A stretch of DNA of 52,271 nt from a virus (Duplodnaviria; Caudoviricetes): positions 1 to 52,271 of the IMG/VR virus record IMGVR_UViG_3300035070_002934; one strand, written 5' to 3'. This document shows positions 1 to 30,200 of the stretch, piece after piece. The position numbers and the translations under genes are program-made. The first letter of the stretch is position 1; each line of letters starts with the position of its first letter. A model generated the notes under the pieces. The model was not told the origin of the DNA. It ran no database searches and saw only the letters and a list, made by a program, of their open reading frames with translations.

Positions 1-2
1 TA

Positions 3-338
3 GAGATTCGCAGCCTTAAAGAAAGGCTGCAAAAATGTGACAGTGACGATCACTTTTTTGTGAAAGATATTGCTAACCGACTTCCATCTGAACTGCTGCC
101 AAAAAACCCAACATGGGCGGCAATGCTGTCTGTAGTCACTATGTTAAAAACAGAGCGAAATAACGCTATTGCAGAAGCGGAGCGTTTAAAAGATGCGATA
201 AAAGAAACGATAGAAGAAAATTTAGATCTAGCAGATGGAGAAATCTGCACACTAATTAAACTAAAGCGAGCCATAAATTATGATGACAACAAACCGCTTA
301 CAGACGAAGAAATTGCATTTCAACGGTGGTGCGACTGA
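3..338 (+). CDS. hypothetical phage protein, 5'-truncated by the window edge
   Basis: The frame of ORF 60..338 is open back to base 3; the stop is followed immediately by an attC-like site. Confidence 0.6.
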   Translation, partial: EIRSLKERLQKCDSDDHFFVKDIANRLPSELLPKNPTWAAMLSVVTMLKTERNNAIAEAERLKDAIKETIEENLDLADGEICTLIKLKRAINYDDNKPLTDEEIAFQRWCD

Positions 339-339
339 C

Positions 340-394
340 ACATAACCTCGCCAGCAACGGCAAGCGTAGCGCGTCCGTTGATGTTTTGTTATGT
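340..394 (-). repeat. attC-like cassette recombination site 1
   Basis: ACATAAC(340-346)...GTTATGT(388-394) with inner CAACGG/CCGTTG arms. Confidence 0.75.
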
Positions 395-414
395 TCCAAT
401 TTTGAGGATTTGAA

Positions 415-633
415 ATGAGTAAGAACCTACATATAGCAACAAGCCCGCTTACTGGAACCATATTCGCGGGATCAGTTTTAAAAGATGGTAGAACGTGGAG
501 CGCAAACAAAAAAGACGTAACTATTGAGGCGTTAGTTGCTGTTGCTGAACATGCTTTGAAGTTTGGCAAACCTGTCGAAATAAGCAAAGCAGACGGAACG
601 CCAGAATTTAGAATTACAGTTGAACGATTATAG
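415..633 (+). CDS. cassette-borne hypothetical protein (72 aa)
   Basis: GAGG RBS; bounded by complementary GTTATGTTC(388-396)/GAACATAAC(633-641). Confidence 0.8.
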   Translation: MSKNLHIATSPLTGTIFAGSVLKDGRTWSANKKDVTIEALVAVAEHALKFGKPVEISKADGTPEFRITVERL

Positions 634-634
634 A

Positions 635-653
635 ACATAACACCTTATTAGAA
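635..653 (-). other. attI-like simple site A
   Basis: Minus strand reads TTCTAAT-AAGGT-GTTATGT (L box, 5-bp spacer, R box); no attC hairpin; nearly identical to 2851-2869. Confidence 0.55.
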
Positions 654-718
654 GGATTCCATTGATTCAGAAAATAGACGGATTCCGTCTAGTTAAAATA
701 ATGTCGGAGGTTTTAGTT

Positions 719-925
719 ATGGATATGCGCATTTATACAAAACATTGGGAAAATTGTATTGACAATGGCATAGAGCCGTATGCGTATGCTCAGTTGTTGG
801 ATGGGATCTGTGTCATTTGCGCGTCATGCTATTTACCCATAAAAAACGATGAGATAGGTAAAGCTGAAATTGCTGGGGAGTCAGCACACGTGAAGTGTGC
901 AGAGAAGTTCCTGAAGCAGTTTTAG
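719..925 (+). CDS. small Cys/His-rich hypothetical protein
   Basis: GGAGG at 706-710; CxxC and HxxC motifs. Confidence 0.55.
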   Translation: MDMRIYTKHWENCIDNGIEPYAYAQLLDGICVICASCYLPIKNDEIGKAEIAGESAHVKCAEKFLKQF

Positions 926-978
926 TGCTCAGATATTGTGAAACTAAATAATGTCGGGAAAGAGAGTAGGAAAGGTAC

Positions 979-1212
979 ATGAAATTATTAAAGATTGAAT
1001 TACATAGCGACCCTTACTACAGACTTTTATACGGCGATGATGTTTTAGGCATGGTAGAAAAGGTCGAGAAAGGTTACTTGGTGATGGGCAAAAGAAAGCC
1101 CGTTGAAACACTGAAAGACGCCGCCAAGCAGCTACTTGATAAGCAGATGAATAGGTGTTTGGCAGATCATGAAAAATACCGAAAGACACTACGGTCAATA
1201 TTGGACACCTAA
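979..1212 (+). CDS. hypothetical protein (77 aa)
   Basis: ORF with purine-rich RBS; stop TAA lies inside the ACCTAAC box. Confidence 0.7.
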   Translation: MKLLKIELHSDPYYRLLYGDDVLGMVEKVEKGYLVMGKRKPVETLKDAAKQLLDKQMNRCLADHEKYRKTLRSILDT

Positions 1213-1255
1213 CACCACAAGCACAACGGCCATTCCGTTGAACGCCTTGTTAGCT
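1207..1255 (-). repeat. attC-like site 2 (short, degenerate)
   Basis: Minus strand AGCTAAC-AAGGC-GTTCAACG...CGTTG...GTTAGGT. Confidence 0.7.
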
Positions 1256-1276
1256 GAACAGATTAGAGGGTTGAAG

Positions 1277-1519
1277 ATGAGTAGAAACACGCAAGCGTTT
1301 ATTGACCGCGTTGTTGAATACCGCGGGCTACCAAAATTAAAGAAAGGTATGCGATGTGAAGTCAATGGGAAGGCTGGGCGAGTTTGGGGCGGCAATGGCT
1401 CGGCAAATTTGGATGTGTTATTTGATGGCGAAAAACGGACCATGAACTGCCACCCCGACTGGAAGATGAAAATATTTAACGATGCTGGCGAGGTTATACA
1501 TGCCAGCGAAGACAGCTAA
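1277..1519 (+). CDS. cassette-borne hypothetical protein (80 aa)
   Basis: GAGGG RBS before MSRNTQ; bounded by GTTAGCTG/CAGCTAAC. Confidence 0.75.
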   Translation: MSRNTQAFIDRVVEYRGLPKLKKGMRCEVNGKAGRVWGGNGSANLDVLFDGEKRTMNCHPDWKMKIFNDAGEVIHASEDS

Positions 1520-1567
1520 CCAGAGTATTCAGAGGTGCGAAGCATCCGCTGGAATAGGTTGTTATGT
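1514..1567 (-). repeat. attC-like site 3
   Basis: Minus strand ACATAAC-AACCT-ATTCCAGC-GGATGCTTCGCACC-TCTGAAT-ACTCTG-GTTAGCT. Confidence 0.85.
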
Positions 1568-1589
1568 GACGATTAACTAAGGGGTATTT

Positions 1590-1775
1590 ATGACTGATGA
1601 AGAAATATTGAAAGTTTTTGAAAGAAAGGGAATGAGGATCGAGTTGGGCGCGCAATTTTCCGCGCGCGGTCAAATTGCAGCATTACTAGATGCTGCCAAA
1701 GAGATTAGCAAAGAAAGCTATATGCGCGGATCGAATGATTGTTATGCGGCAATGATGGCGCACAAAGTCATATAA
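1590..1775 (+). CDS. cassette-borne hypothetical protein (61 aa)
   Basis: AAGGGG RBS; bounded by GTTATGTGAC/GTCATATAAC (9 of 10 complementary). Confidence 0.75.
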   Translation: MTDEEILKVFERKGMRIELGAQFSARGQIAALLDAAKEISKESYMRGSNDCYAAMMAHKVI

Positions 1776-1824
1776 CCTTTCTATTTTGCGGCTGCTTGCA
1801 GTCCGAAAGAATGGGTTGTTATAT
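1770..1824 (-). repeat. attC-like site 4
   Basis: Minus strand ATATAAC-AACCC-ATTCTTTC-GGACTGCAAGCAGCC-GCAAAAT-AGAAAG-GTTATAT. Confidence 0.75.
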
Positions 1825-1850
1825 TTTATTTTTATTATTTTGGCCGAGCT

Positions 1851-2081
1851 ATGAGCATTAAAAATGATACAGGTTTAATTGAGAAGTACAAAGAACTTGA
1901 GAAGGTTGGCTCTGCAAAAGTTACGATCTTACATGACCAAGTTCTTGAGGTTGTTGTAGGTGACTTGATAGGCAAATATAAATCATGCAAGAAGTATGAT
2001 AATGACTCTGTAGCAAGTTTTGAAAAGGTGCTTAGGTTCTATCTTACAGATGACGAAATGAAAGAGATTGAAGAAATATAA
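1851..2081 (+). CDS. cassette-borne hypothetical protein (76 aa)
   Basis: Bounded by GTTATATTT/AAATATAAC; AT-rich. Confidence 0.75.
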   Translation: MSIKNDTGLIEKYKELEKVGSAKVTILHDQVLEVVVGDLIGKYKSCKKYDNDSVASFEKVLRFYLTDDEMKEIEEI

Positions 2082-2135
2082 CCAATAAGTTAACCGGCGC
2101 CCGAATGGGCGTCCGAGTTGAACTGGCGGTTAGGC
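2076..2135 (-). repeat. attC-like site 5
   Basis: Minus strand GCCTAAC-CGCCA-GTTCAACT-CGGACGCCCATTCGGGCGCC-GGTTAAC-TTATTG-GTTATAT. Confidence 0.9.
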
Positions 2136-2164
2136 GTTTACTCACAAATGTAGAAGGATTGAAT

Positions 2165-2440
2165 ATGCATATTGATGACTGGCTGGATTTGCCGGCCAAA
2201 GACGATGCGGAGAAGTTGGCCAAGGAATTTCTGGAGCACTGCCGTAGACCAGCGGCAGAAAAGGACTATGCATGGATCAGGGCCAACCCCCTGTTTTGCA
2301 CATACAAGGGCGAGCGGTGGCGAGTAGTTGGCGCAAGCCGCCTAGGTGACGTGTGGCTGTCAAAGCAATTCGACCGTGAAAACGGCTACGAAATCCGCCC
2401 CGATGTGGACGCGTGCAGCGATTGGAGCAAAGACGCCTAA
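2165..2440 (+). CDS. cassette-borne hypothetical phage protein (91 aa)
   Basis: AAGGA RBS before MHIDDW; bounded by GTTAGGCGT/ACGCCTAAC. Confidence 0.8.
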   Translation: MHIDDWLDLPAKDDAEKLAKEFLEHCRRPAAEKDYAWIRANPLFCTYKGERWRVVGASRLGDVWLSKQFDRENGYEIRPDVDACSDWSKDA

Positions 2441-2488
2441 CCCAACAGCTAAGCGGCGCTCTGCGTCCGCTTGAGCGCCTGGTTAGGC
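2435..2488 (-). repeat. attC-like site 6
   Basis: Minus strand GCCTAAC-CAGGC-GCTCAAGC-GGACGCAGAGCGCC-GCTTAGC-TGTTGG-GTTAGGC, a canonical R''/L''/L'/R' layout. Confidence 0.9.
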
Positions 2489-2514
2489 CCGTTGCACAAC
2501 TGGAGATAGACAAG

Positions 2515-2856
2515 ATGACCGAGAAGCGAACTGTTTGGGTGGCATACACCAACACCGACCTCACCGAAGGGCGAGGCCATGACGTGCCGATTGCCGTGTG
2601 CTCCGCAGAAGCAACCGCGCTGCGCATGGCGCACAAGCAGTATGTGCAGGGCAGTGACGGCCCGGTGCGGTCGATGGAGCTAGTGAAGATCGACGGCAAG
2701 TGGTACGCGCCGAGCCCCGCAATCAATGTGGTGGAGCCAACCCGAGAGGACGTTGCTGCACAGGCCGCGATTGATGCCAAGCGCGATGCGGTGGCGAAGG
2801 CAAAGGCCGCAGGTTTGACGGACGCCGATCTGCTGGCACTTGGATTAAGGGCCTAA
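2515..2856 (+). CDS. cassette-borne hypothetical phage protein (113 aa)
   Basis: GGAG RBS before MTEKRT; bounded by GTTAGGCCC/GGGCCTAAC; GC-rich. Confidence 0.8.
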   Translation: MTEKRTVWVAYTNTDLTEGRGHDVPIAVCSAEATALRMAHKQYVQGSDGPVRSMELVKIDGKWYAPSPAINVVEPTREDVAAQAAIDAKRDAVAKAKAAGLTDADLLALGLRA

Positions 2857-2869
2857 CACTTTATTAGAC
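2851..2869 (-). other. attI-like simple site B
   Basis: Minus strand GTCTAAT-AAAGT-GTTAGGC (inverted core boxes, 5-bp spacer). Confidence 0.6.
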
Positions 2870-2974
2870 GACAGTCGTCATAACGTGGCGTCTACGGCCT
2901 GTGGCAACACTGGATCGGGAGTTTTCCCGGCCGGCTCGCAAGGGCTTAACGGTAGACTAAGTAGGAGTCGATTG

Positions 2975-3121
2975 ATGTTCAAAAACATTCAGGCGCTACG
3001 TGGAAACATAGCGTGCTTTTATCTGGTTGGCGCGTATACAGAAGTTTGCTTTGAGAATGATGACGACAATCAAGGTGGCAAGGTTTTTATTAATGGCGTT
3101 TACCGCTATGCGTGTTACTAA
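2975..3121 (+). CDS. short hypothetical protein, possibly truncated by an internal stop
   Basis: AGGAG RBS at 2963-2967; frame stays open past TAA to 3190. Confidence 0.35.
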   Translation: MFKNIQALRGNIACFYLVGAYTEVCFENDDDNQGGKVFINGVYRYACY

Positions 3122-3213
3122 AAGACGATTAATACCCAGGCGGAAGAAAATGTTTTTGGTTGGGTCGAAACGCTGGATTTTATGGCGTAACATTTTAATG
3201 AGGAGCTGGCAAA

Positions 3214-3483
3214 GTGAATAACATTAACGTACATGATCTAGTAGTCGCACTGCGAGCCGTTGCTGTTGCCGTGCCGTTCGATCAGCAATGGTTTGATCTT
3301 GATCAGCTTGCTGCGTATCTGTGCTACTCAAAAACGCACGTAGAGCAACGGGTTTTAGGTCTGCCCGGATTCCCGGAGTCTGTAAAATGCGGATCAGGCA
3401 AGCGTTGGAGGGCGCGGGATGTTTGCAAGTGGTTGGAGTCGCAGACGGGTTCCTGTCGGCCTCGCAAGTCGGCATCAGGATAA
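3214..3483 (+). CDS. AlpA/excisionase-like HTH protein
   Basis: Small HTH with 'LAAYL..SKT..PGFP..RWRA.DV..W' pattern directly upstream of attP/int; GGAG RBS. Confidence 0.75.
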   Translation: MNNINVHDLVVALRAVAVAVPFDQQWFDLDQLAAYLCYSKTHVEQRVLGLPGFPESVKCGSGKRWRARDVCKWLESQTGSCRPRKSASG

Positions 3484-3488
3484 TTTTT

Positions 3489-3738
3489 TTGCGCCAAATT
3501 TACGCCAAACAGTTTTAAGTGTTTGATTTTTCAATCTTCTTGGTGCCGCCTCTGGGCACCATTATTATTTACGATATATCCCCGCAAAGCCGCATGAACA
3601 CTGGCTTGCAGCCAAACCAGCAAGGATGCTATGGCGTAAAAACTCTATACAAAATCCCCCATTTTTATGTATATTTTGCGACCCGTTACGCCAAATTTAC
3701 GCCCGGCGTTACGCCAACATTTTTATCAGTTACGCCAA
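3489..3738. other. attP-like region
   Basis: Core CCGCCTCTGGGCACCA (3546-3561, tRNA 3'-end-like); TTACGCC arm repeats at 3489, 3500, 3686, 3697, 3709, 3730; IHF consensus at 3516-3528. Confidence 0.75.
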
Positions 3739-3750
3739 GGACAAGGACGA

Positions 3751-4719
3751 ATGGCAACAATACGCAAAAGAGGCAAATCATGGCGCGCCGAACTCTGCGT
3801 CAACACTGTGCGCGACTCTCGCACGTTTGACACCAAAAGCGAGGCGATGACATGGGCTGTGGCGAGGGAAGCTGAGCTGAAAGTCGTTGCGCCGGGTGAA
3901 GATGACCATTCAAAGCGCACCGGGCCGGATTTGTTTGGCCGTTATTTAAAAGAGGTAAGCTCAATAAAGCGCGGCGCGAAATGGGAAAAGATCAGGCTGT
4001 TGAAGTTTATGGATTACCACCACTTCAAACGGCCTTTACGCCAGATTACGCCAGATCATATTGCGCACTGGAAACAGGAGCGACTGAAATCTGTCTCACC
4101 GTCAACGGTACGGCGAGAAATGAATCTGTTAAGCCACTGCTTTGAGACTGCGCGCAAAGATTGGCGATGGCTATCTGATAACCCATGCACCGATGTTTCC
4201 AAGCCGCCAGACGGCAAAGCAAGGGATCGGCTGATCAGCAACGATGAAATTACACTCATCCGCCATGCGCTTGGCTGGCCGGTCGATGGAGTTGCAGCAA
4301 CAAAAATGCAGTCGGTCGCCGTCGGATTTATGTTTGCGATTGAAACCGGAATGCGAATGGGGGAAATCTGTGGGCTGACGCATGAGGACATTGTCGGCAG
4401 CGTCGCAACACTCCGGCAAACAAAAAATGGCACAGCCAGGCGCGTACCGCTGTCAAAAAGGGCGGTCGAGCTGCTGTCATTTGTACCTGACCTCTGGGAT
4501 ATGAAGCCGCACCAATTTGAAGCGCTCTTCAGAAAAGGGCGCGACAGATCTGGTGTGGTCGGATTGACCTTCCACGACACGAGGCATGAAGCAATCACGC
4601 GACTCGCCAAAAAACTGGACGTGCTGGAGCTGGCGCGAATGGTCGGGCACAAAAACATCAATCAATTATTGGTTTATTTTAACGCTAAAGCGGAGGATAT
4701 TGCAGACATGCTAGGCTAA
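3751..4719 (+). CDS. int: phage tyrosine integrase (Rci/HP1-like)
   Basis: TGMR, K, HDTRH, GH and Y catalytic motifs; N-terminal MATIRKRGKSWRAE arm-binding motif; likely start 3751 with AAGGA RBS. Confidence 0.92.
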   Translation: MATIRKRGKSWRAELCVNTVRDSRTFDTKSEAMTWAVAREAELKVVAPGEDDHSKRTGPDLFGRYLKEVSSIKRGAKWEKIRLLKFMDYHHFKRPLRQITPDHIAHWKQERLKSVSPSTVRREMNLLSHCFETARKDWRWLSDNPCTDVSKPPDGKARDRLISNDEITLIRHALGWPVDGVAATKMQSVAVGFMFAIETGMRMGEICGLTHEDIVGSVATLRQTKNGTARRVPLSKRAVELLSFVPDLWDMKPHQFEALFRKGRDRSGVVGLTFHDTRHEAITRLAKKLDVLELARMVGHKNINQLLVYFNAKAEDIADMLG

Positions 4720-5297
4720 ATATGCGTCCAGCATTTTCTATGCCTCACACTACTTATTGCTGCCGGAGATACACCAAACAGAAGGGCAAGTTCAACGCCC
4801 TTTTTATCGGACAACCTAATATAAATTACATCTTCTGCCTTTAGCTTTGATGAATAATGTTCGCTCCCTCTTTTTAATCTCTCTCTCTGCGTTCTTGATG
4901 GGTGCTCATCCCCTCTTTTAGAGCACTGAGAGCGATCATGAGCCCTGTTCTTCCTGATCATATCTTGGATATTTTCTTTTTGCGTACCTGCAAACAAGTG
5001 TGAAGGATTAAAGCAGCTAGGGTTGTCGCACGAATGGCACACATTCAACCCATCATCAATGCATCCATTAAGCATTTCAAATGAAAATCTATGCGCGTAG
5101 TGGTGTTTTGGCTTCCCATTTTCACATGAAACATATTGACCATACCCGGCGCTAGTCAAGCTTTTTGGCCAATTCCAACACCCATCAACCCCATCAAACT
5201 CCTTAGCAATAGAAACAAATCTACATTTCGGGGAGCAGTATGGCGCTTTTCTGGCGTTCCTTGATTCATATTCTTTTTCACATGTATGACACTTCAT
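4716..5297 (-). CDS. free-standing HNH endonuclease
   Basis: GCWNW..GYG..AHR..VCHSCDNPSCFNPSHL..N motif with N-terminal Zn finger and C-terminal HTH. Confidence 0.88.
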   Translation of the reverse strand: MKCHTCEKEYESRNARKAPYCSPKCRFVSIAKEFDGVDGCWNWPKSLTSAGYGQYVSCENGKPKHHYAHRFSFEMLNGCIDDGLNVCHSCDNPSCFNPSHLFAGTQKENIQDMIRKNRAHDRSQCSKRGDEHPSRTQRERLKRGSEHYSSKLKAEDVIYIRLSDKKGVELALLFGVSPAAISSVRHRKCWTHI

Positions 5298-5618
5298 GCC
5301 AGCCTCATATAAATAACATTAACCAAGGTATTATTATAACGATAAGCTGTATATATATCCAGCATTACAATGAGACAGCCGAGAATCTGGCAGCAAAATT
5401 GAATTAACCCGTCCGCAGGGATGCTAAAACGGGCGCGACACCTGCACAGTGGAGTGACTGCCGGGAGAGACTGGCGCAACACAAACTACATTCAAAGATT
5501 TTCCCCTTTCGGTTTCATTTTGCTACATTAACACCATGGCAACGGATTGACTCTTCCGCGTATCGGCAAGGGCGCCAATGACATTAAGCGAGAATCAAAT
5601 GTACCGATCAGGATTAGA

Positions 5619-5837
5619 ATGGATATATTGCGCGTACCTCTCATTCTATTTCTATTCATCGTAATAGCATTCGCCTTTTCAAATGGCTGGCCACCATTAG
5701 CGTTCCCGGCAGGCATTGGCATATATTACCTGATCAGTAGCGATAAAAGTGGTGCTGGCATCGAAGGCTTTTTTGCTCTACTCTTTGGTTTTCTCGTCAT
5801 TGGCGGGGGGATCATCCTACTTATGAGGCTATTCTGA
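5619..5837 (+). CDS. small membrane protein
   Basis: Two to three hydrophobic segments; AGGA RBS before MDILRV. Confidence 0.6.
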   Translation: MDILRVPLILFLFIVIAFAFSNGWPPLAFPAGIGIYYLISSDKSGAGIEGFFALLFGFLVIGGGIILLMRLF

Positions 5838-6016
5838 TGAAAAAAATAATCACAGCGCTCTTAATCTTGGCGGCGAGCACCGCTTACGCTACCGGGTTCT
5901 TGTCTGGTGAGCGTACAAGCGGCATGAAAAAGATCTGTTATTACGACACACCTAGCGGCACTGTCGCAATAACAATCAAGGCGGTTGAGCTTTGCCCGTT
6001 GACGATTAAGGATTAA
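5837..6016 (+). CDS. small secreted protein (59 aa; not in the ORF track)
   Basis: MKKIITALLILAASTAYA signal-peptide-like N-terminus, two Cys; TGATG coupling with the upstream gene. Confidence 0.65.
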   Translation: MKKIITALLILAASTAYATGFLSGERTSGMKKICYYDTPSGTVAITIKAVELCPLTIKD

Positions 6017-9000
6017 AAAACCTCGTCCGTCAATTCGGCATACTTCTTGGCAATAGCATTACGCTTTTCAATGAGTCCGTCCATCTTCTCGCGCTTGGCC
6101 TCTGCCGTAATGATTCTATTGCGGCTGAGTTGATCCATTTGCTTTCTGATATCGCCAAGCTGGTTTCTTGCCTTGCCTAACTGCCTACGGTAGCGCAGTT
6201 TTTCCAGGTTATCAGCCCTCAATTCTTCCGCCTCTTCTGTGCGGCCTTCTTTCTTGAATGAGTTGATTGTCCTGAAAACCTGATCTATTTCAGACCATCT
6301 ATCGAAAACGTCAGTGGTGTATTGCGTGGACTTGTTGGTATCTCCACGATAGAGTGCTTTAATAACAGGCAGGTCTTCCAGTTTCCATTCTGGTTTATCT
6401 GCTCGCCCGGTCGCATAGTCTGCGAACATATCCGCAATACCAAGCGCATACATACCCATTGTTCCCAGGTAGCCATTCAGCAAGTGCTCTAGCTTCTTGG
6501 GTGAGTACCCAGTCCATTCGCCAAGCACGCGCATAGTCATACTGGTGTTTTCGTCGTACCTGGCGGATTCGATCTTGCCTTCATCGCTCATACCCTCAAT
6601 AGGCTGATCAAAGAAAAACTTACGGTTAGCCACGCTTTCAATTATCGGCATAGCGAATTGTGGCGTAGGATTGATAGCCATGGTTTCCCATAAGTTATGT
6701 TTGATCGACCACAACAATTTTTCGGCGTCTTGTGTACCTGTCAGTGTGTGCGTCAGCCTTTCGGGAATAGTCCCGAACACAATACCAATCTCAAACGGCT
6801 TGGGCAGTCTGTAATGATCATCACCTAGCCAGAAATGCCAGTTTGCATCCTTATCCCAATCAGGAAGCTCCTGATATCTCTCGTCGTCATCATTGAGCAT
6901 GGCTAGTGCAAACGAGAACAAAGCCAACTTGAAACCAGCCTCAACAAGTACCCGCTTAGGGTTCTCATGCGCCGCCCTGACAAGCTTTGACATACCCTGA
7001 AGTCTAGCATTCATAAATGGTACAAGGTCTATCATGTACTGCATCATGGCGAAATTACCGCGCAATGAGTAGTCCATTAAATCCTTAGATTCAAAAGCCG
7101 CCTGCAAGATTGATTTGCCGCTTTTCTTTGCCGCCTTGTATGTTGCCAGTCTGTTAGCATTCTCCACCTTGTCGCCTAGTTCGCGGTACTTCTGCCATCC
7201 TTGTTTTATCGCATCAAGCCCTTTCGCTGGCGTATCCAACAATGACGATTCGTAGGCATGTAGCGCACGAGGTGAAAGCCCTTTCTTCTCTAACGCTCGC
7301 CTAATGATTTGCGCCGAGGCTTCCGGGTCTGTGCCGTGAACATAGCCACCTTGGAACGATGCCCCGGCAAACATTAGCTCTCGGTAGTCGGGGTCTTCTC
7401 TTAAGGCATCCTTCAAGCCCTTAATGCTATCCACGCCAAGCTTAAATCCGTCCGGGTTGATTGCCCAGGCGTGAGCGGCATCTCGAATAAAGTTCCTAAG
7501 AATAAAATCAGGCGAAGAGGTTATCCCGGTTGTTAACAGGCGCTTCATGTAACGCCCAACCTTTGTCACTGGATCATGAAAGCCAGGGTGTGAAAGATGA
7601 GTTATGGCGCGAAGCAATGCCGGGTCGTTAACCTTGTAATACTCCGGTTTTCCGTCACGCTGAATACGAATGATATTCTTGTCAGACTTCTTGCCAACAA
7701 AGTCTACTGAATTTTCGCCTGCAACTTCTTCCAGGTAATCAGAGCCAGCGAGGTTATCAACCGTTTTAACTAGGGCGCTATTCTTCATCGAAGCATCGGC
7801 CAGCTTCATCCAGTTTGCAAGGATGTTTTCTAGTAGATCGTTTGTTGCTTGTCCGCCGCCTTTTAATTGCTTAATACCAGAGGTCTGGTGTGATAACCCC
7901 TTGCTGGTTCTCGGTGCGAGAAGTGAAACATTTCCCGCTTCATCTTCAATTTCACGATAAAAAGGAATATACCAATCAGACTCCCATTTGGCGCGGGACT
8001 CAGCAGAAATAAGGCCAGACTCTTGCGCCATATCAAGCATGGCTTTGTTGAGTTTTTTATATTCCCTATGGATTTCTTTGAATAGAGCCTCTTTGCCTTT
8101 AGCTCTCGACTTCAAATCATCGATATCGGCTTGAGTAAGGTTGTTCTCCCTCCCTTGCGCCATCAACTCTTCTGCCCGGTGAGCGCCAACCCAAGCAAGG
8201 TAACTATGAAGATCTTTCCCGGCTTTGCCAAGGATATCAAGCAAGCCTTGTGTGCCTTCCTTGTATTGCAGCGCACCGTCTTTCCACTTGGGCGCGCCGT
8301 AGTGAAGTATGGCGTGCATAACGTCAGCGATACCCGTTGCCAGCCTCGCGCCAATGTAGCCTCTATTCTCGGCACCAGACACACCTACCGCCTTTTCCGC
8401 CCGATCAATACCGATCAGACCATCAAACATACCCTCATAGGCGCGATGCTTGAACATAGACCATAATGATTTTTCATTTTCTGCGGCAACGACCTTGTTG
8501 ATTGCCTCGGATAGCTTGGCCTTCCTCTTGGCGCCAAGACCGAACTTGTTTAGGGCTTCGTCTGTTTTTGCTGATCTCAGGGAAAACATAGGCCCGGAGT
8601 CATCAACGTCCATCAGAGGAATATCTGTGTAATCAACATAGTTTTCTGACAATCGCTTATCGGACGCCTTGCTATTTGTTCGTGTGTTTCTTTCATCGCC
8701 ATCACCTACATTAAAAATAACTTCACTATTATTGCTATAGTTCTTAGGACCTTTCCCTTCTACGGCCAATCTCGCATTTTTTAACACCAACAACAATTCA
8801 TTGGTATCAACATCAGCTAACTTTAAAAATCCCCGGTCACGCAAAAACTGCCGGATCTTTCCTATTAGCTCCTTGAAGGCTCGCTTAATTCCTGGCTTAT
8901 TGCTTTGAGCAAGGTGCGCAAGCAACTCGTCCATCATGATTTGGATCTTTGCTTCCGTCGGCTGCTTCGCCAGCCCTTCGGCATAAGCTTTCAGGTCAAT

Positions 9001-12000
9001 ACCATTCTTCTGTGCAATCTCATTAAAGCCGCGAGCTCCACCAATGGCGTAAAACAGGCGCATCAATTCACGGCCTACGTTCTCGCCAAGCAGTTTTCTT
9101 ATGCCATAATGTCCATAACCTTCGTGGAAAATAGCTTCTTCGACTTCAAGCGCGCTCATCAGGTTCTCTCTAACAAGGTAGATCTTTCCTTCATGAAATA
9201 CGCCATTTATCTCATTCCTGCCTGCGCCATACTCCTTTGCCTGGCTCTTTATCGCCGACGGAAGATCATCAAACGACTCGACCAAAACGATGTTATCCCG
9301 CCCTTTACTCCAACTGGCTGTGATACGGTCGATAATTTCATTTGCTTTCGCAGAAGTGATGGCAGCACCCTTTCTGGCAGCGGTGATTTTCGGGTTGATG
9401 GAAAACAAAGTCGATGATTCAAGGAAGCTAATATCTTGCAGTTCCACACCATCCGGTTTATGCCTAACGCCTTTGACCTCTATATTTGCCTGCTTGTCTT
9501 TTTCTGCGTAAACGTGAACATACTCACCGGAGTTTATGTTCCGCGATGGATAAACGTCATAAAACAGATTCCCATTCTTTACTTTCATTCCTAGAGTTTT
9601 ATATGTTTCACCTTCAAACATTAATTCTATGGAATCTTCTCTTTTTGATTTTCCTGAACTCTTAACATTTCTTTTTCGCTCGCGCTCGATGTACTTGTTA
9701 GCCTGCGTACTGCGCCTTTGATCTTCTTTCGCATCAGCGACTTCCACTTCCACCGCTAACCAATCATTAAAACTGCGCTCTTCCTCAAGACGATCCTTTT
9801 CTTTGTGTGCGCTTTTCGATACCACTTTCTTGGCTTCAGCGTAAGCATTCTTTTCAGCTTCAATGGCCTGCAATGTTTCAGATATAACAGATGATTTTGC
9901 TCTTTCCGCAACAAGCGGATTTAGCTTGTTTAGCAAATCTTCTGATCCAATAAATGTCGCCATAGCTGGTTTTTCATAGCTATATATCGGCGTCCGACCA
10001 TGAAGATAAGTTATTTCAATATCATAGACAGTCTTGTCCTTGTCGCTGTAAAACGCATTCCTAGAAACATCCACTTCGAGGCTTGAGTTTTCCCCCAGGG
10101 CAATTGATCCACTCCATGAATTGACCTTAGCGTTAATCGCCTCCATTGCTGGCACGACAACCCTTTCATTCAGCAACTTCGTGTAATCGTGCGTTATTGC
10201 GTGGATTTTTGGCCTAATTGGTCTAACTGGCTTCTTGGCTCCCTTTTTTGCCTCATCACTTAACGCCTCATAGGATTCAAAAGCGGTTTCAAAAGCTGAT
10301 AATTCCTTCTCGAATTTTTTATTTTGCTCACTTACTGCCGCATCAAGTGATTGCATGTCAAATTCTGTAACGCTGAACTTATCAGCAGCCTCTTTACGGG
10401 CATACAATCGCGCCAAGTATTCATCATGGTTTTCTATGACTCTTTCGGCTCCGCTTCGGCTTGAACTTGCCGCATAGTAGTCCGTTTGCGCTTCAACCAA
10501 CCGAGCATCCGATTGCAACTTATGCTTATATATTGGATTGCCTGTAGAGGAAGCCTTAAATTCTGCATAACTATCCGCATCCCCCCCTTCATCATCCACA
10601 TATTCATCAAGACCACCAGAACGGAATTGTTCTATTGCTGCCGCTTTTCTTTCCAATATCTGCCACATAACGGGATCTGATGACCCTTGTGTCGCGTAGG
10701 CAACAATCTCAACCTCAAACCCTTCAGGATCACGGGTATACAGGTCGTTACCCTGACGAATGATCCGGCCTTCACGTTGCTCCATGTCGCTAGGCCGCCA
10801 GGGTGCATCCATGTGATGTAATGCAACCAATCGCTTCTGTGCATTGGTCCCAGCCCCCATCTTAGCGGACGAGCCAATTAATACGCGCACATCCCCGGAG
10901 TTCACTTGATCGAATAGCGCCTTTTTCTTATCAACAGAGTCATAATCATGGATAAACGCTATCTCATTCTCAGGGACCCCCGCTTCCATAAGCGATGCTT
11001 TAAGATCATCGTAAACACTAAAGCCCGTATCTGCCGTTAATACAGAAGACTCTAAACTGGATATCATGTCTTGTAGCGCCTCTTCCTGCGAGGCGTCTAT
11101 ATCTCCTGATTGCTGCGCCTTTTCTATCCGCGACACAATATCTTGCAATACTTTTGAGTAGGCATCCTCGTCATAGAAAGCGATACGTTCATTAACCAGT
11201 TTGGTCGCCGCTGCATCTGACATAGCCATTGACGCTAAAGCCTTTAACTCTTTTTTGACGGAGCCTTTTGCATACTTAGCAGGCGTTCCCATGTCACTAA
11301 ATACAAGTTGAGCACCTTTATCATTTTGCCATTGGTCATAAATCCGTTTGATATTCTTTGCTGCTCGTGCAACTTTCCCAGTAGGATCTCTGCGTGATGC
11401 AGGATCAACTAGCCGGATATCAAGCGAAGCCTTGCGAGCGTCAGACAAAACCCATAGAGGGTTATCAATGCTCGCGTATTCTTTTCGCTCTTGCCGCCCT
11501 TTGATCGCCTCAATTGCTGACATTCTAGCTATAAGGTAATCGTTGTACTCTCTCTGTGTTTCGGTTGCTGGCGCTAAATCCAATCTGCGCTGACCACCCT
11601 TTACTTTCGGTATAGGAAAAGCGGTAGAGTCGTTCGTTTTATTCTTCTCGTTCTTCTCTGCGGTATCTTCTGCAAAAATGTTCACCATATCCGCTCTGGT
11701 TATGACATCTGCAAATTGCCGATACTTTACCGACAACTCTTGCATGTTACTTAAACCTTTGAGAACCACCCGCTCTTTAACTGAACCCGTTGGCGTATAT
11801 TCGAGAGCCGTTTCAGTATTTAGAAATGAGCCAGCAAAAGCGTCATAGTGAGAGATAGATCCGTCTTTTAGTACGTCATAGCCGAGGTAATACATCATGG
11901 TATAAACCTCGACAAGACTGTTACTAATCGGCGTCCCAGTCATAAAGGTCACGCCGCCATTATCCAAACCTTGAACTACCCTTGTCTTGGTTAATAGATC

Positions 12001-15000
12001 AAGCGCCTTTTCAGAACCTTTAGGATCATTCATGCCAACAACACGATCACTACTTGTTGAGTAAGTCAGGTTCTTGAATTCATGCGCCTCATCGACAACC
12101 AGGTAATCAACGCCTAGATCAGAGAAATCAAAGCCTATAGCATCGTGCGAAGATTCTATCGCCTTTTTCTTCTTCTCTATCTTATCCACCATGCTAGAAA
12201 TGGAATCTTCAATCTGCTTGGTTGAAGACCCTCTTCGGCCTGATTCTTTTGCTTGAGACTTTGCCTCTTCCAAAGCCGCCCGAAGCTCAGATATCTTTTC
12301 ATTTACAACAGCCGCGAAGGAGTCAAGGCTATTCGGCAAGTAGCGCAAATGGGAATGACCGATGATCACAGCATCATAATCACCCGTAGCAATCCGAGAG
12401 AAGAATTGCTTTCTATGTGCAGGTTTCATCTGCTTTTCAGTCGCGGTAAGAATGTTCGCGCCAGGATATAGTTCATAGAAGTCGGCAGTGAATGCGCCGA
12501 TAATATGGTTAGGCACAACCACCATTGGCTTCTTGCTCAAGCCGAGGCGTTTACGCTGCATTATCCCGCTGATGGATGTAAATGTTTTTCCAGCACCTAC
12601 CGTATGATCCAGCAAAACATTTTTGCTCTGAACCATTCGTAGTGCGCCATCTAACTGCGTCTTACGCATTTCAATAGTGGGGTTCTGTCCAACAGGTGTA
12701 AAATAAAGCCGCCCGTTAAATTTGCGCTCGATATGCGTATTCACGCGCTCGTTAAAGTTTTTGGCGATTCTATCCATTATAGAACTGTTATTGCTCGCCC
12801 AGGTGTTGAATACCTGCGCCATCTTGTTCACCAAGACATTTACCTGCTTTGTTCCCTCTTCATGCTTTACCTGATTACCGTTACCATCCTTAGTGTATAT
12901 AACCAAGGATTTACCCGCCGCCGCCGCTTCGAATAACTCAGGGATACCCTTGTAATCGTTTTTGAACTGCGCTCCAATTTCGGTATTGGACGATCCATTT
13001 ACCGTTGCAATTCGCACCGTTCCAAGTTGACGATTAACATTAACCTTTGCCTTAATGCCTACGTCCTGTAAAAACTGCTCGAATACTTCCGCATCCATCC
13101 AAGACGCACGAACAGAAGCCTTTATTTTATTAACGGGCTTATCTTTTGGCAGCACACTCTTCAACAGCTTTTCGTTAACAACGAGGCCAGCATCTTTTGC
13201 TTCATGGTATTTGCGCTTAACATTGCCAGACAAATAGTCGTCAATAAACACAAGCTCATCTATTGCAGGATCTTTTAACAAATATGGCCTGTTGCCCTTT
13301 GTTAGTGATTCACGCGCTTGTAGCTTTGAAACTCCAAGCAACTTAGCAATGTAACCAATGTCAACCTTGCCATGTTCGCGAATCGAATAATTCACCGCAT
13401 CATGGATATCCGAAGCCTTTGTCGGTTTCTTGTATGGCTGCATCATCCGTTGTGAAAATATCTTATGCTTTTTCACGTTGCCTTTTTTATCAACGCTATC
13501 AAGGCCAGATTCAATGCTGATATCGTCACGCAGAAGATTAAGACTTGCAGATATAGAGGCAGGCTTGTTCTTACTGCCATACGTTTTAGCAAACGCATCA
13601 TATTGCTTATTTAGCCTTGCCCTAAACTGCTCAATCGTTCCGAGATCCTGTTTCTCTGCGCGAATTAAAGATAATGCGGTATTTCTAATGGCTAAAAGGT
13701 CTTTCAGCTTGTTGTATTTGTCGCCAAGTGACGATGAGGCTATGCCGCTATCAAGCTCACGCTCCAAAGTGGCTTTCGATATTTCACGCTTACTATATGC
13801 CTGGATAGCTTTAAAAGGTTTTGATGTGTACCCAGACTTTAACGCGCCACCATTGTTCGTTAAATTTTCCCTGAAAGCTGTCTCGAATGCCGTTTCATCA
13901 TTGAGTAATTTGTCTCTCAGTTCCGCAAGTAATTCGCCGTTGGCCGTCCATGGTGTAGAAGGCGTCACTTCAACAATGCTTGCGCCAAGCTCTGTATCAT
14001 CCCCTCGCATCTGAATCTTGCCGTCTGCATCAAGCATCATGCCACCAATAGGCAAAGAACTTTCTGAAAGCAACACCTCGCCTGCGAGAGAGTCCTTTAT
14101 CTCATCTGTTAACGCAAGGTTATAACCTTTAGCCATTTCCTTTAATGCAATAGACACCGCCGAACGAATATCACCATATTCTTCTGTTGGATGAACCGTT
14201 AACTCTTCCTTTCCAGCCCTTAATGTCCCATCATTCGCTAATCGCCCAAGGATGTTTTGTGGATTGCTTTCAAAGTATTTATTAATCCTGATACCATCAA
14301 TGTTGCCGTTAACATCCGTCCAAACAGTATTGCTCGACTTCTCGCCATTCTTTAATTTGCGGAATACAACGATATCGGTAGTAACTTCCGTCCCGGCATT
14401 GGATTTAAACGCCGTATTTGGTAGTCGGACAGCGCCAACGAAATCTACAACACTGGACAAATTGCGGTGATTTTCGTTTAAGGTATCTAAGAATCGATGG
14501 GTAACGACCATCATCATCAAGCCGTCTTCATGCAACAGTTTGGCGCTTTTCGCAATCATATAATTGTGAATGCGTAAACCTGAAATATCCGGGTTCCTTT
14601 CATCTGTGATTGTTTCACTTCCGAAAGGCGGATTACCAATCGCCAACGAAAAGACATTGCTCTTAAATGGTGTATCCTGGAATCCTCGCACCTGGATATT
14701 CGCGTCATCATAGATCAGCTTTGCTATATTCCCTGTTACCGTATCCAGTTCTGAAGCCGACCACTTGGATTTTTCGCGCATAGCAGAAGGTTGCCAGCCG
14801 ATAAAATTCCCTGAACCGACCGAAGGCTCGACAACATTCATGGCCGAACCACCAAGACCGAACGCCTCAACGCCCTGCCACATAGCCTTCACTATTTCTT
14901 TTGAAGTGTAAAACGCCGTCCTGGTAGAAGATCGAGCATTGTTATATTCAGTTGGAGTTAAAAGCGCCTTTAACTCTGTGTGCGCTTCTTGTGCAAACTT

Positions 15001-18000
15001 CTTTTTCGTAGTGTGGTCGAATACGAAAGACAGACCACCCCATCCAACGTATTTCGCTAGAACATTCTTTTCATCGGTTGTCGCATAACGGCCACTGGAT
15101 TGAATCTCTTTCATTAGCCTGATTGCGGCCAAGTTTGCATCAACCCTTTGTTTATCAGTTCCGTTTGCAATCCCTTCAATGTTTTCTAAAGAAAAGCCTG
15201 GTGCTTCAGGATTATTCGTATTGCTTCGCTCTGAGCTGTCGCTTTCCCCGCTCCCGATGCCATCAATACTTCCATTTCGTCCATCACCATCGCTGCCAGG
15301 GCTTTTGTCTCCCTCTCCAATTCCGTCTGCCCCATCTTCGCGTATCTCCCCTGATCCGCCACGCTGCTCTTCACTATTTCCTGTATTGATTTGATTGTCA
15401 TCTGCCGATTCCTCTAATTGACCATTTCTGATATCTTGCGCAAACCTTACTATGTAGGGTTTCACGCCTACCCCGAAATTGTCAAGAATCGCTCGAATAA
15501 GATCTTTCAAATCTTTTCCTGCCGCCTGAAAATCTCTAAGCATGGAAACAAAGTGAGGCTTGGCTTTTTCGTAAGTTTGCTCGTCAAAAGTAAGGCCGCT
15601 TGATAGTGTGCCTTTCCCTCCAAACAATTCAGCTAGGCCATTGATCGCGTTCATTCCTGCCTTGCTGACATTAACGCCCATGCTCTTGGCTATTTCAGCC
15701 GCCGCTCTTTCTTTGTCTGATTCAGAAGGTGCAGACTCTAACTTTTCGGCTTTTGTTTTTCTTGGTGTTAGCTTGCGCTTGCCGCCTTCTTTTTTGCTTG
15801 AAGGCTTACGCTCTTTGACAGGCTTTGTGTTGTCTACAGGATTTGACTCGTTAGCGACTTCATCTATTAGAGCCAGTAGATCATCATCTGACATAGCGGC
15901 CATTTGCTCTGCTAGTCCAGTATTTTGGCTTTCAGCTTGGTCGCTTTTTGGTGTAGCTTGGTCACTTTTGCCAAGTAAATCAGCTAATTTGTCCCTAACT
16001 GAACTTTCCCTACTCTTCGGAAACATCCATCCTTGCTGTCTTGAATGCCACTTCCCGCCAGCGGCCTTTATCCTGTCCTTATGCGTTCTAGTGTCACCCT
16101 TAACTAGAATTGCCTTATCAGATATTTCCTCGATGTATAACGGGCTGTCAGATTCAATAACCGCATCCTGAAGTGCATCTTTCGGTTTCTTGGCTTGATC
16201 ACTCTCTGACTTCTGCCCTTCAGCCCTCCTTATCCGGTGCGCCTCTCTAAACTCGATAGCATGCTTGTTGCCAATCTCGCTCATCATCATGATGTAATCG
16301 TAGCCGACAGGTGAGTTTGTAATCTCTTTGATAACCCGCTCTTCTGTGCCGTGCTTTGCCGCCAGATCTGATATTTCGCTGTCTGTTAATCTGCGGCCAT
16401 GCTTAATGGTTATCTCTGCAATATCGCGTGCTATTTCCTTTTTTGAACTAGCTTCAACATTAGCCCTGAGCAGTGCTGATATCTTGGAGTTCTCAGGATC
16501 ATAAGCTTTTTCACTCTTTGGCTTTGGCTTTGGCTTGACCTTTGGCTCTTTTGGTTTCGACTCTTCATTTCTCGCTTCCATTTCAAATGGAGTCGAGGAA
16601 TTGTCCTCCTGCTGTCCCTTGCTCTCTGTTTTTGATTCTGGTGTATCAGCAAAAATATCCGTCTGACCATTCGCCATAGCGATATCAGCGGCGCTATCGG
16701 AACCAGACAAGGTGAAACTATCCACCTCTTTGTCGGCATCGATGCGTGCTTCTTCTTGCGCCTTGGCTTCGGCTTCTGCCTGGTTAGCTTTGGTAGCTTC
16801 GGCCTCTTGTTGCGCTAATGATTCTTCGGTTTGCGTTTCAAGCTGGAAGTCTTGCCCCGATACTTCGCTTTGAATTTCGCGCAATAGATCCGGGTGCTTA
16901 TGCCACTCTTCATACCTTTCCGCTTCTGCCGTCAATTCGGCAATGCGCCTCTTCAGGCTTTCAGGATCTTTAACGTCCACGCCTTCTTGCTTGGCCAGCT
17001 TTGGATTCTTAGCCGCACCTTTGACAGCGGCAATACGCTCTTTTATTTGTCTCTGCTTTGAAGAGGCGGCCTTAGCCATTGCCTCGGCTTGTTTCATGGC
17101 AGAGTCATCAAAGCCAAACAAATCACCCTCTTGTGTCATGTCTGGTTTGCTTTTCAGCGTCTTGGCGGCACGAATCATATTGACTGCTACCGACTGCGTC
17201 TTGCCATCCTGAATGGCCTTTAAGCCTATTGCCTGGTAAGCCTCATCTTTCGGCGCTACTCGGGTAATGGCTTCTGCCGCTGCCTCGGTGATTTGATCGT
17301 TACGAAGGGCGGTAACGAGGCTATCACTTCCCTCTTTTGCGATGGTGTAAGCCCTTCGCCCCAATTGGCGAGAGGTGATTCCGAGCTTTTCACTTTCTTG
17401 TTCGGTGATTCCTGATGATCGGAAGAATTCGACATAATCTTTTACGCTCCCTTGGTTGTCTCTAATGTTCAATATAGCATCAAGCGCTTTACCATGATCT
17501 GCGGTGAATCCGTCAGCTTCATAGTGCAATTGTGCGGGAATGTCTTTCTGATTGCTACGCTTGGCAAGGTCGAACCTGTGACGACCTGTCAGGATCTCTT
17601 TCTTGCCATTCTTTCTCACCCACACCTGAATGGGGGCCATGCCCACTTCATCATACTCGCCGCGCAACTGTTCAACCACGCCATCTTTACTAGCACCGGA
17701 TTTGAACTGTGGCACATCCTCAGACAATGTTAGCTCGTCCAGATTAACCCTGGCCTGTTTGCGCTTGGGATCAAACGATTGGCCGCTATCAGTGCTCTCG
17801 TTGTCCAGTTTAGCTACTTTGGCCTTTTCCATTGGCGGCGGCAAGGCTAGTCTTTCCCTGTCATTCCTGCGGGTAATAAGAGGCTTGTCTTCTTTGCCTA
17901 TCCAGTTGTCGGGACCACCTAGTTCCGGGTCGCCCTGTTGTCCGTCAATGAAGGGACGATCAAGGCGCAATCGGTCAATGCCTAGCTGCGGATCTTTCTC

Positions 18001-29630: not shown

Positions 29631-30200
29631 ATCTCCAGGTAACTTAGCTCTGATCTGCTCTGGCTCGACAATCGCCTCCGCCACGGTGTCAGCGCCGAAG
29701 AAGAAGGCCGCATCAGACTTAGCGTTATTCCAGGCTTCATAGGCGATATTGGTCTGCGTGAAGAAACGAATTCCCTCATAACGACCGATTTCACCCGCTG
29801 CAATCCGACTAAAACCAGATTCGATATAGAAACTGATAGCTTCCAGATCGTCCTTAAAGGCGCGGAAGGTTGACGGACGCGCCAATGCACAGTAGTTCTC
29901 ACCGTCATAAGGCGTGATATTGCGCTCTGCCATCGCATCAGCGATTAACTTCACATGCTCTTTTCGCAATGCTACGTTGTTGGTGACACCGCCTGCCGTG
30001 CCATCAGTATTAATAGCACTGATCGTGGTGGCAGAATCACCCGTACCGCCTGCGGTCACTGTCAACTTGGTTTTGTTGAACTCAGTGTAAGCCGCGGCGT
30101 CCAGCGTTTTACAAGCATCATTCTTCAACACCTTGTCAATCACACGCTCGCAAGAGTGCTTAGATAGGATATCGACCTTGCGAGTGTAGGGAACAGAGTT
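29631..30200 (-). CDS. major capsid protein exon 2
   Basis: NSVPYT...GEIGRYEGIRF...RAKLPGD, N4-gp56-like. Confidence 0.9.

Follow-up and report, generated by a model that had tools for sequence, protein, structure and literature searches.

Probable reverse-polarity integron-type cassette arrays without an integron integrase gene in a phage operon

The IMG/VR viral record IMGVR_UViG_3300035070_002934, analysed over its whole 52,271 bp and here called the window, carries near its left end a stretch, 340-2857, in which imperfect hairpins are interspersed with small open reading frames (ORFs). This stretch is read as two reverse-polarity arrays of integron-type cassettes that lie in a phage operon, lack an integron integrase gene (intI) and are served in trans by the integron integrase (IntI) of a host, a reading given a probability of about 0.65. 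By the usual IntegronFinder definition, at least two attC sites that share one strand, span no more than a few kb and have no intI in their vicinity make up a cluster of attC sites lacking an integron integrase (CALIN). The window arrays are a CALIN, as six sites lie on one strand within 2.2 kb, all inside 340-2488, and no intI accompanies them.

In the proposed mechanism, each cassette would consist of an attC site, then a ribosome-binding site (RBS), then one small ORF whose TAA stop lies at the presumed crossover, TAA|C. Read in the canonical direction, the array would run from right to left, starting at an attI-like junction (CTAATAARGTG|TTA) at each right end. The IntI of an integron-bearing host would excise and insert cassettes in trans, acting on the folded single-stranded bottom strand; we infer this mobilisation by a host enzyme. 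Entry into the phage would have been at an attI-like or attG-like target that is present twice. Phage promoters, and not an integron cassette promoter (Pc), would drive the cargo, since the ORFs point the same way as phage transcription.

Hairpin sites and cassette units

The six imperfect hairpins of 49-60 nt that an original prediction, made from the letters alone, had reported in this stretch are all present (Table 1). That prediction called their boundary boxes RYYYAAC-like, which is apt: all six read xxxTAAC...GTTAxxx, and few conform to the strict consensus. Read from the box sequences, two of the six left boxes and two of the six right boxes match strict RYYYAAC/GTTRRRY. A strict consensus scan returned S7 alone as a complete site pair and was dropped, since it misses real sites; loose AAC/GTT-plus-hairpin scans gave too much noise to be of use. 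The fold energies of the six sites range from -5.8 to -17.7 kcal/mol. S4, S6 and S7 clearly have a bulged G 9 nt before GTT, a feature of the aadA1 attC bottom strand, and S7 is closely similar to that strand. S5 can form the bulged G solely in an alternative, manually derived pairing; S3 shows an AA bulge, and S1 no more than a mismatch. Covariation was assessed on 18 sites (six from the window and 12 from other viral contigs), in which 82.2% of cells pair, compared with 68.1% after shuffling; none of 500 shuffles came as high. Both sides have changed in 12 of the 18 pairs, and sliding the partner by 1-3 columns leaves pairing at 34-43%. This covariation favours a common structure of the sites, kept as structure and not as sequence.

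An Rfam cmscan of positions 1-6000 at E<=10 gave two chance-level matches and no attC-family match, and two covariance models were therefore built. Model R1 was trained on 18 phage sites alone, each taken on the ORF strand: the six of the window and 12 in IMG/VR loci. Its test set of 152,865 nt contained the window together with a class 1 array on a P1 phage-plasmid, the integron and CALIN of Shewanella phage M16-3, and a Vibrio phage integron. Here R1 matched 18 genuine sites, the Shewanella and Vibrio arrays included, and nothing outside arrays; the class 1 attCs aadA1, qacH, psp and aadA2 scored 33-39 bits (E 1e-7 to 6e-6). Model R2 was trained on these 18 genuine matches alone, which come from three integrons. 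Its training alignment was model-guided; MAFFT had aligned 14 genuine attCs too poorly for their structure to be annotated. R2 recovered all six window sites (scores in Table 1), with no further match in the window. Over the whole window at E<=10, R1 and R2 returned, apart from the six sites, just a 13.6-bit minus-strand echo of S1. R2 found nothing in eight array-free loci, nor in three cultured Aeromonas/Vibrio phages that encode DUF7446 (42,636 nt). These reciprocal tests confirm the six hairpins as attC-type sites, as first proposed.

Each of the six units holds one ORF of 61-113 aa, and the GC content of the units ranges from 0.33 to 0.61. Matching ends of a unit, with ends of a site that need not match, are the classical mark of a circular form cut inside the box. 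The two boxes of one hairpin match poorly (1-4 of 6 positions outside TAAC). Between the start and end boxes of the six units, 29 of the 36 positions compared (numbers 5-10 beyond GTTA) are complementary. Among all 720 pairings the true one alone reaches 29, and 265 derangements average 12.4 with a maximum of 21. This test bears out two earlier claims, that each single-ORF unit begins with a box whose reverse complement ends it and that the units carry the footprint of circular cassettes. Many cassette ORFs of the window, and of the array in the viral locus L015, end in ...GAC NNN TAA C, so that their last two codons fall within an extended box pairing with GTTANNNGTC. A promoter consensus scan, which is weak evidence, found no plus-strand promoter-like site inside the units. 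The ORF of the first unit, ORF2, belongs to DUF7446 (PF24233, E 4e-20) and phrog_1578.

The layout proposed earlier stands as far as the units are integron-type, and not as one continuous array. There are two arrays, S1 with ORF2 and S3 to ORF9; ORF3 and ORF4 between them lack cassette features. Neither R1 nor R2 has a match between 394 and 1207, and ORF3 and ORF4 are probable backbone genes that separate the arrays. Just 5' of their start codons, at 700-716 and 944-960, stands the 12-mer AAATAATGTCGG.

That no intI is visible in the window also holds: a six-frame search of the whole record with TIGR02249 (IntI) gave no match. No IntI was found in five other viral records, nor in 375,761 nt of 89 array loci. 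A tyrosine recombinase match is absent from four of the five array-bearing viral records and sub-threshold in the fifth. The complete genome behind L015 has at least seven sites, no IntI and no PF00589 match.

Polarity, crossover position and entry sites

In genuine integrons the bottom strand lies opposite the cassette ORFs in 18 of 18 R1 matches. All matches in the window, and all those in other viral loci (29 with R1, 34 with R2), lie on the ORF strand. The longest ORF between neighbouring sites is on the opposite strand in 10 of 10 cases in genuine arrays; it is on the same strand in 5 of 5 cases in the window and in 18 of 22 cases in four other viral arrays. The plus strand shares with the bottom strands of the aadA1 and Shewanella sites the G bulge 9 nt before GTT, a loop-proximal T bulge in GTCC, and TTGTTA. 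The cassettes are of reversed polarity, their coding (plus) strand being the equivalent of the canonical bottom strand. Canonical cassettes have their ORFs on the attC top strand, and those of the window do not. Recombination has a strand preference of about 1000-fold, which sets cassette orientation (Richard et al. 2024, PMC13108822; Loot et al. 10.1101/2022.09.11.507474).

Polarity also bears on where the crossover lies, which the original prediction had put at G^TT of the right box. Canonical cleavage of the bottom strand takes place between A and C in the RYYYAAC box. Because the plus strand is bottom-like and the canonical mechanism is assumed, the crossover is expected on the plus strand at TAA|C of the left box, at the ORF end, and the earlier placement is abandoned. 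Each cassette should then own the hairpin upstream of its ORF, in the order C, hairpin, GTTRRRY, RBS, ORF, RYYYAA. A hairpin stands directly upstream in all six complementary-box units and downstream in just four. Near-identical DUF7446 ORFs in the viral loci L014, L015 and L016 have upstream hairpin cores that are 0.68-0.80 identical and differ by compensatory changes; the sole downstream hairpin comparison among them gives 0.58, which is background level (95th percentile 0.67). Upstream ownership fits better than the first assignment because of these hairpin identities, the count of upstream hairpins (six versus four) and the 14-nt right ends shared by the two arrays. Co-travel of hairpin and ORF was assessed on four informative ORF pairs. 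Homologues of ORF8 in L045 and L046 adjoin sites, upstream in the former and downstream in the latter, and are ambiguous.

The same model puts the bottom strand opposite the ORFs in phage TJE1, a published CALIN. Its polarity is thus canonical, and reversal is not general to phage CALINs. In Polaribacter phage P12002L (L039), R2 has a weak match at 30005-30058 (18.4 bits, E 0.13) on the same strand as two flanking methyltransferase genes. This genome, another published phage CALIN, may also hold a reverse-polarity site.

Directly after TAAC, the right ends of both arrays carry an identical 14-nt sequence, present in just these two exact copies in the window. On the minus strand the junctions read CTAATAAAGTG|TTA and CTAATAAGGTG|TTA (together CTAATAARGTG|TTA), against CACTAATAAAATG|TTA in the Shewanella attI, a sequence also quoted by Qi et al. 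2023 (PMC9892861). From this likeness the 14-nt junction is a candidate attI-like or attG-like entry site, and a putative 22-bp target of entry is reconstructed as …GACACMTAA|CACYTTATTAGA…. The two places had been listed as candidate sites, 'S2' (635-721) and 'S8' (2850-2960); they are not attC by R1 or R2 and were reinterpreted as attI-like junctions.

Table 1. Coordinates of the attC-type sites, cassettes (in the reverse-polarity reading), candidate junctions and neighbouring genes in the window
Feature	Position	Strand	Remarks
attC-type site S1	340-394 (55 nt)	+	R1 31.3 bits; R2 26.7 bits, E 0.0038; fold -12.1 kcal/mol; plus strand bottom-strand-like
attC-type site S3	1207-1255 (49 nt)	+	R1 26.6 bits; R2 15.2 bits, E 1.6, weakest of the six
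attC-type site S4	1514-1567 (54 nt)	+	Bulged G 9-10 nt before GTT; R1 45.0 bits; R2 18.2 bits
attC-type site S5	1770-1824 (55 nt)	+	R1 52.6 bits; R2 23.7 bits
attC-type site S6	2076-2135 (60 nt)	+	Bulges T, A, G in 3' arm; R1 40.1 bits; R2 16.5 bits
attC-type site S7	2435-2488 (54 nt)	+	Bulged G exactly 9 nt before GTT; R1 50.2 bits; R2 32.2 bits
Cassette 1	346-640	+	C, S1 hairpin, GTTATGTTC, RBS, ORF2 (415-633), GAACATAA; boxes identical over 9 nt as reverse complements
Cassette 2	1213-1519	+	S3 hairpin, GTTAGCTG, ORF5 (1277-1519, phrog_6245), CAGCTAA
Cassette 3	1520-1775	+	S4 hairpin, GTTATGTGAC, ORF6 (1590-1775), GTCATATAA
Cassette 4	1776-2081	+	S5 hairpin, GTTATATTT, ORF7 (1851-2081; GC 0.33), AAATATAA
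Cassette 5	2082-2440	+	S6 hairpin, GTTAGGCGT, ORF8 (2165-2440), ACGCCTAA
Cassette 6	2441-2856	+	S7 hairpin, GTTAGGCCC, ORF9 (2515-2856; GC 0.61), GGGCCTAA
Candidate attI-like junction B	639-665	-	Reads ...CTTCTAATAAGGTG|TTATGTTC; one of two exact window copies of AACACYTTATTAGA
Candidate attI-like junction A	2855-2885	-	Reads ...GACGACTGTCGTCTAATAAAGTG|TTAGGCCC; compared with Shewanella attI
ORF1	3-338	+	5'-open at contig start; ends just before S1 left box
ORF3	719-925	+	Between the arrays; no hairpin, no complementary boxes
ORF4	979-1212	+	Between the arrays; no hairpin, no complementary boxes
xis/AlpA-like gene	3214-3483	+	From profile searches; context only
Phage tyrosine integrase	3667-4719	+	Not an IntI; from profile searches; context only

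Recurrence, genomic setting and rival explanations

Homologues of ORF2 (DUF7446, phrog_1578) occur in 21 IMG/VR loci. Eight array loci were fetched, one of which (L008) repeats the sequence of another (L007), and seven independent array loci have DUF7446 homologues and the same polarity as the window (L006, L007, L012, L014, L015, L016 and L021). Sites are absent from 13 of the 21 DUF7446 loci and from five loci obtained with other queries. The source of L015 is a complete 40,196-bp genome with direct terminal repeats, where the array is flanked on one side by an exonuclease VIII-type recombination gene (phrog_412, E 2.8e-70) and on the other by lysis/structural genes. In L014, L015 and L016 the DUF7446 ORF has different neighbours; the similarity begins in the upstream hairpin and stops at GCCGTATAAC. 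Longer sites of 79-87 nt with a common inner ...GTGACCATGAG... segment are found in L015 (5330-5408 and 6512-6598) and L016 (6714-6798), and the ORF that follows the first of these (5385-5657) begins within the site. A homologue of ORF9 in L005 was considered as a further array member and rejected, having no site nearby. No named isolate with a reverse-polarity array was found; the cultured Aeromonas and Vibrio phages that encode DUF7446 lack sites.

At least 120 metagenome contigs contain an exact copy of the 24-nt 3' part of S7, so that the phenomenon cannot be called rare. Eighty fetched metagenome contigs contain 88 R2 sites, on one strand per contig throughout. In 37 inter-site segments the longer ORF lies on the bottom strand in 21, on the other strand in eight and is ambiguous in eight, a test that is noisy at high GC. 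Most metagenome arrays with an attC type known from the window share its reversed polarity, and several lie next to phage hallmark genes. Ten large proteins from six longer contigs include two gpA-type terminases, one D5-type primase domain and one LPD38 polyvalent protein, and the Atlas clusters of the cassette cargo are 58-67% viral. The same attC types and cassette families recur in other, mostly phage, contexts. The polyvalent protein, in L059, stands beside an attC array and is a distant relative of that of the window (22% identity over ~630 aa). L059 was not kept as a relative of the window phage, having this distant protein alone in common with it. Its cargo includes, at 1225-2445, one item far larger than the window cassettes: a full-length RtcB RNA ligase gene (E 2.6e-127), which has an attC-type site at either end and is located on the bottom-strand side.

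Positions 1-5300 were also compared at 90% likeness with four metagenome studies (runoff, freshwater, seawater and soil), in each of which 5-10% of the sampled words are present; stretches that no metagenome contig covers are uninformative. All four runs contain contigs that cover S6 and S7. In one soil contig the match extends over 2463-2857 (ORF9), and divergence sets in exactly at 2857. Seawater and freshwater contigs connect an S5-type hairpin with the end boxes at 341 and 636; among these joints is a weak one, with a side of 23 nt, in a freshwater contig at the end box of ORF1. Two joints that lie off the box boundaries (2123>2435 and 2133>2464) were given no weight.

The window is the whole viral record, a linear contig with a CheckV completeness of 86%. 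Its left 4.7 kb form a plus-strand series of small ORFs that leads into the xis/AlpA-like gene and the tyrosine integrase, in agreement with the phage operon first described. ORF1, at the contig start, has no Pfam, PHROG or NCBIfam match and is either the array-distal flank or one more cassette. Between the xis-like gene and the integrase gene, a GC-rich hairpin with a T-run (3541-3561, plus strand, ending ...GGGCACCA) may act as a terminator or belong to an att core. The integrase is matched by Xer-type models alone, at 30-37 bits against cut-offs of 220-335. Its closest relatives are 44% identical in viral contigs and 39% in bacterial genomes, with no close phage relative. An HNH_3 endonuclease gene (4716-5297, minus strand) overlaps the integrase stop with its end by 4 nt. 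A tRNA scan of the window found none, and hence none beside the integrase gene.

Further to the right, a small plus-strand ORF with a signal-peptide-like N-terminus (MKKIITALLILAASTAYA...), located at 5837-6016 between the HNH and polyvalent-protein genes, may be a moron. From 6 kb on, the minus strand encodes an SU10-type portal, a terminase and further large ORFs; plus-strand early genes, a Rha regulator among them, occupy the right end. One minus-strand ORF of 4,409 aa (6013-19242) is a 'large polyvalent protein' with LPD38 (E 4e-45), SNF2-related, ResIII and Eco57I-methylase-like matches. The closest relatives of the terminase, at ~50% identity, are from Pseudoalteromonas, Vibrio and Shewanella phages, which suggests a marine gammaproteobacterium as host. 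No DNA similarity to cultured phages was found for 1-5300 (distant mode) or 20001-45000 (near mode).

The main rival holds that the hairpins derive from attC sites, are no longer integrase substrates, and that the modules are shuffled by homologous recombination, either general or of a phage RecE/RecT type, in a manner resembling the stem-loop modules of T4-type phages. This is judged unlikely, although the complete L015 phage lends it substance. Site 7216-7263 of that genome is a chimera joined in the loop, as homologous recombination and not a box crossover would give, with a left half identical to site 5652-5699 and a right half identical to site 5918-5965, and the exonuclease VIII-type gene lies just upstream of the array. 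Hairpins of the same type are near-identical over many contigs and so offer homology, and IntI is missing from all 89 array loci. However, inert hairpins leave unexplained the 29/36 complementarity of the unit boxes, expected only if an excised circle must re-form a paired R box. The same is true of the conserved asymmetric bulges of the recombinogenic strand with their covariation, and of divergence at the box and not within the hairpin (at 2857 and at GCCGTATAAC). Besides the chimera, several observations weigh against cassette arrays served by a host IntI. No recombination event was observed, the host may be one without an IntI, and the part missing from the linear, 86% complete contig may hold an intI. 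The R2 scores of S6 (E 0.79) and S3 (E 1.6) are not significant alone, and the two model tests are not fully independent, as the R2 training sites were picked and aligned by R1. No clean bulged G at -9 is seen in the minimum-energy folds of S1, S3 and S5, and the ORF8 homologue in L045 has non-complementary flanking boxes. The likeness of the junctions to the Shewanella attI spans just ~14 nt, and the attI-like motif occurs in none of 167 other fetched loci. The metagenome joints are weak evidence: they have short sides (23-62 nt) at 90% likeness, and repeats or other organisms may produce them.

It is improbable that positions 1 to ~3500 are host chromosome, a bacterial CALIN beside a prophage whose first gene is the integrase. 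In favour of this view, the contig is an incomplete, linear one with the integrase immediately to the right of the array, the T-run hairpin at 3541-3561 is a possible att core, and prophages that captured chromosomal integron fragments have been published (Qi et al. 2023, PMC9892861). However, the cargo belongs to phage families (DUF7446/phrog_1578, phrog_6245 and the mostly viral Atlas clusters), and genuine bacterial arrays have the opposite polarity. The ORFs run in the same direction as the xis-like and integrase genes, whose xis-then-int order suggests an att site that lies within the contig, downstream of int, and no tRNA adjoins int. Like arrays are also found between the recombination and lysis genes of a complete phage genome that has direct terminal repeats, and on metagenome contigs that encode a terminase, a D5-type primase domain or a polyvalent protein. 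It is very improbable that a phage-encoded recombinase works the sites, be it the tyrosine integrase or another enzyme such as the HNH nuclease. The integrase is indeed placed and oriented to the attI-like junction as intI is to attI; on the canonical top (minus) strand it and the array point away from each other, with ~800 nt between it and junction A, and the HNH endonuclease gene abuts it. Yet it is not IntI-like, no integrase stands beside the junction of the second array, the complete L015 phage combines at least seven sites with no PF00589 match, and the other array-bearing records gave at best the one sub-threshold match. A role of the phage's own integrase is unlikely because array-bearing phages can be without any tyrosine recombinase. 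A function of the hairpins as ordinary transcription terminators or RNA-processing sites, or an origin as chance palindromes, is scarcely credible. Their intergenic position, and the fact that they would fold in mRNA too, suit such a view, but no T-runs follow them, and a terminator scan picked the S5 region alone (region count 12, against 7.3 in shuffles with a standard deviation of 2.7). The models find sites in arrays alone, and complementary boxes at unit ends would be useless for termination.

Relation to known systems

If the arrays are reverse-polarity cassettes served by host IntI, such cassettes would be expressed from phage operons and silent when captured at a bacterial attI. Placement of the bottom strand on the lagging-strand template favours folding and raises excision in Vibrio cholerae (Richard et al. 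2024, PMC13108822). If the operon is, in addition, co-oriented with replication, the bottom strands of the arrays would lie on the lagging-strand template, in the excision-favouring orientation. Integrons count as bacterial devices, and their cassettes store anti-phage defences (preprints 10.1101/2024.07.02.601686 and 10.1101/2024.07.02.601719), and if phages keep arrays of their own served by the host integrase, one recombination machinery would fuel both sides of the arms race. The small unknown phage cassette genes would then be a catalogue of exchangeable accessory, possibly counter-defence, functions. Surveys assign ORFs from the attC strand on the assumption of canonical polarity (e.g. 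Buongermino Pereira et al. 2020, PMC7370490), and standard pipelines that predict top-strand ORFs would miscall the cargo of reverse-polarity arrays. A more tentative proposal, held with less than even confidence, is that phages keep their own branch of the cassette pool, of reverse polarity and with small early/accessory genes, which circulates among diverse phages through host IntI.

Small early/accessory phage genes separated by conserved stem-loops are also a feature of T4-type phages. There, PeSLs, units of a promoter plus a stem-loop, stand between early genes, and modules are reassorted by homology. The window sites differ from PeSLs in that they fit attC models and have AAC/GTT boxes, asymmetric bulges and the footprint of circular cassettes.

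IntI can insert cassettes at non-att genome sites, the attG route (Loot et al. 10.1101/2022.09.11.507474). The window arrays resemble its products in that entry would occur without an integron platform, through a short double-stranded G|WT target, and both arrays abut the GTG|TTA repeat. However, judging from the junctions, the ~14-nt target would have been used twice, to give multi-cassette arrays, and is more attI-like than a random attG.

CALINs in phages have been published. Qi et al. 2023 (PMC9892861) report 17 CALINs in 10,705 phage genomes, and five of six tested phage attCs recombined with attI1 through IntI1. The arrays described there share with those of the window attC sites, single-ORF cassettes and a phage genome without IntI. 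The main text of that study is silent on ORF polarity relative to the attC strand, and its supplementary tables may list related cases. In its example TJE1 the polarity is canonical, whereas the bottom strand of the window arrays is the ORF strand. The window has six sites, compared with a minimum of two in that study, and relatives of its arrays are common in uncultured viral and metagenome contigs. In the literature covered, that outside subscription journals and supplements, no description of reverse-polarity cassette arrays in phages was found. What seems new is arrays with all ORFs on the recombinogenic strand, together with their phage-family cargo; their frequency in viral and metagenome contigs and a repeated attI-like entry site in a phage were not found in print either.

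The canonical arrays used for comparison are the class 1 array on the P1 phage-plasmid MH445380 and those of Shewanella phage M16-3 (MZ568829) and Vibrio phage p16 (MK672802). Like them, the window sites have AAC...GTT boxes around an imperfect inner palindrome; a G is bulged 9 nt from GTT, a T is bulged within GTC, and the sizes are near those of the 59-60 nt class 1 sites. The units likewise hold one ORF each, with the stop in the TAAC box and complementary unit ends, and models R1 and R2 recognise each other's sites. In contrast to canonical arrays, the window has no intI and no recognisable Pc, its ORFs lie on the bottom strand, and its cargo consists of small phage-type proteins. Transcription must start at phage promoters, and it runs towards the attI-like end of each array, not away from it.

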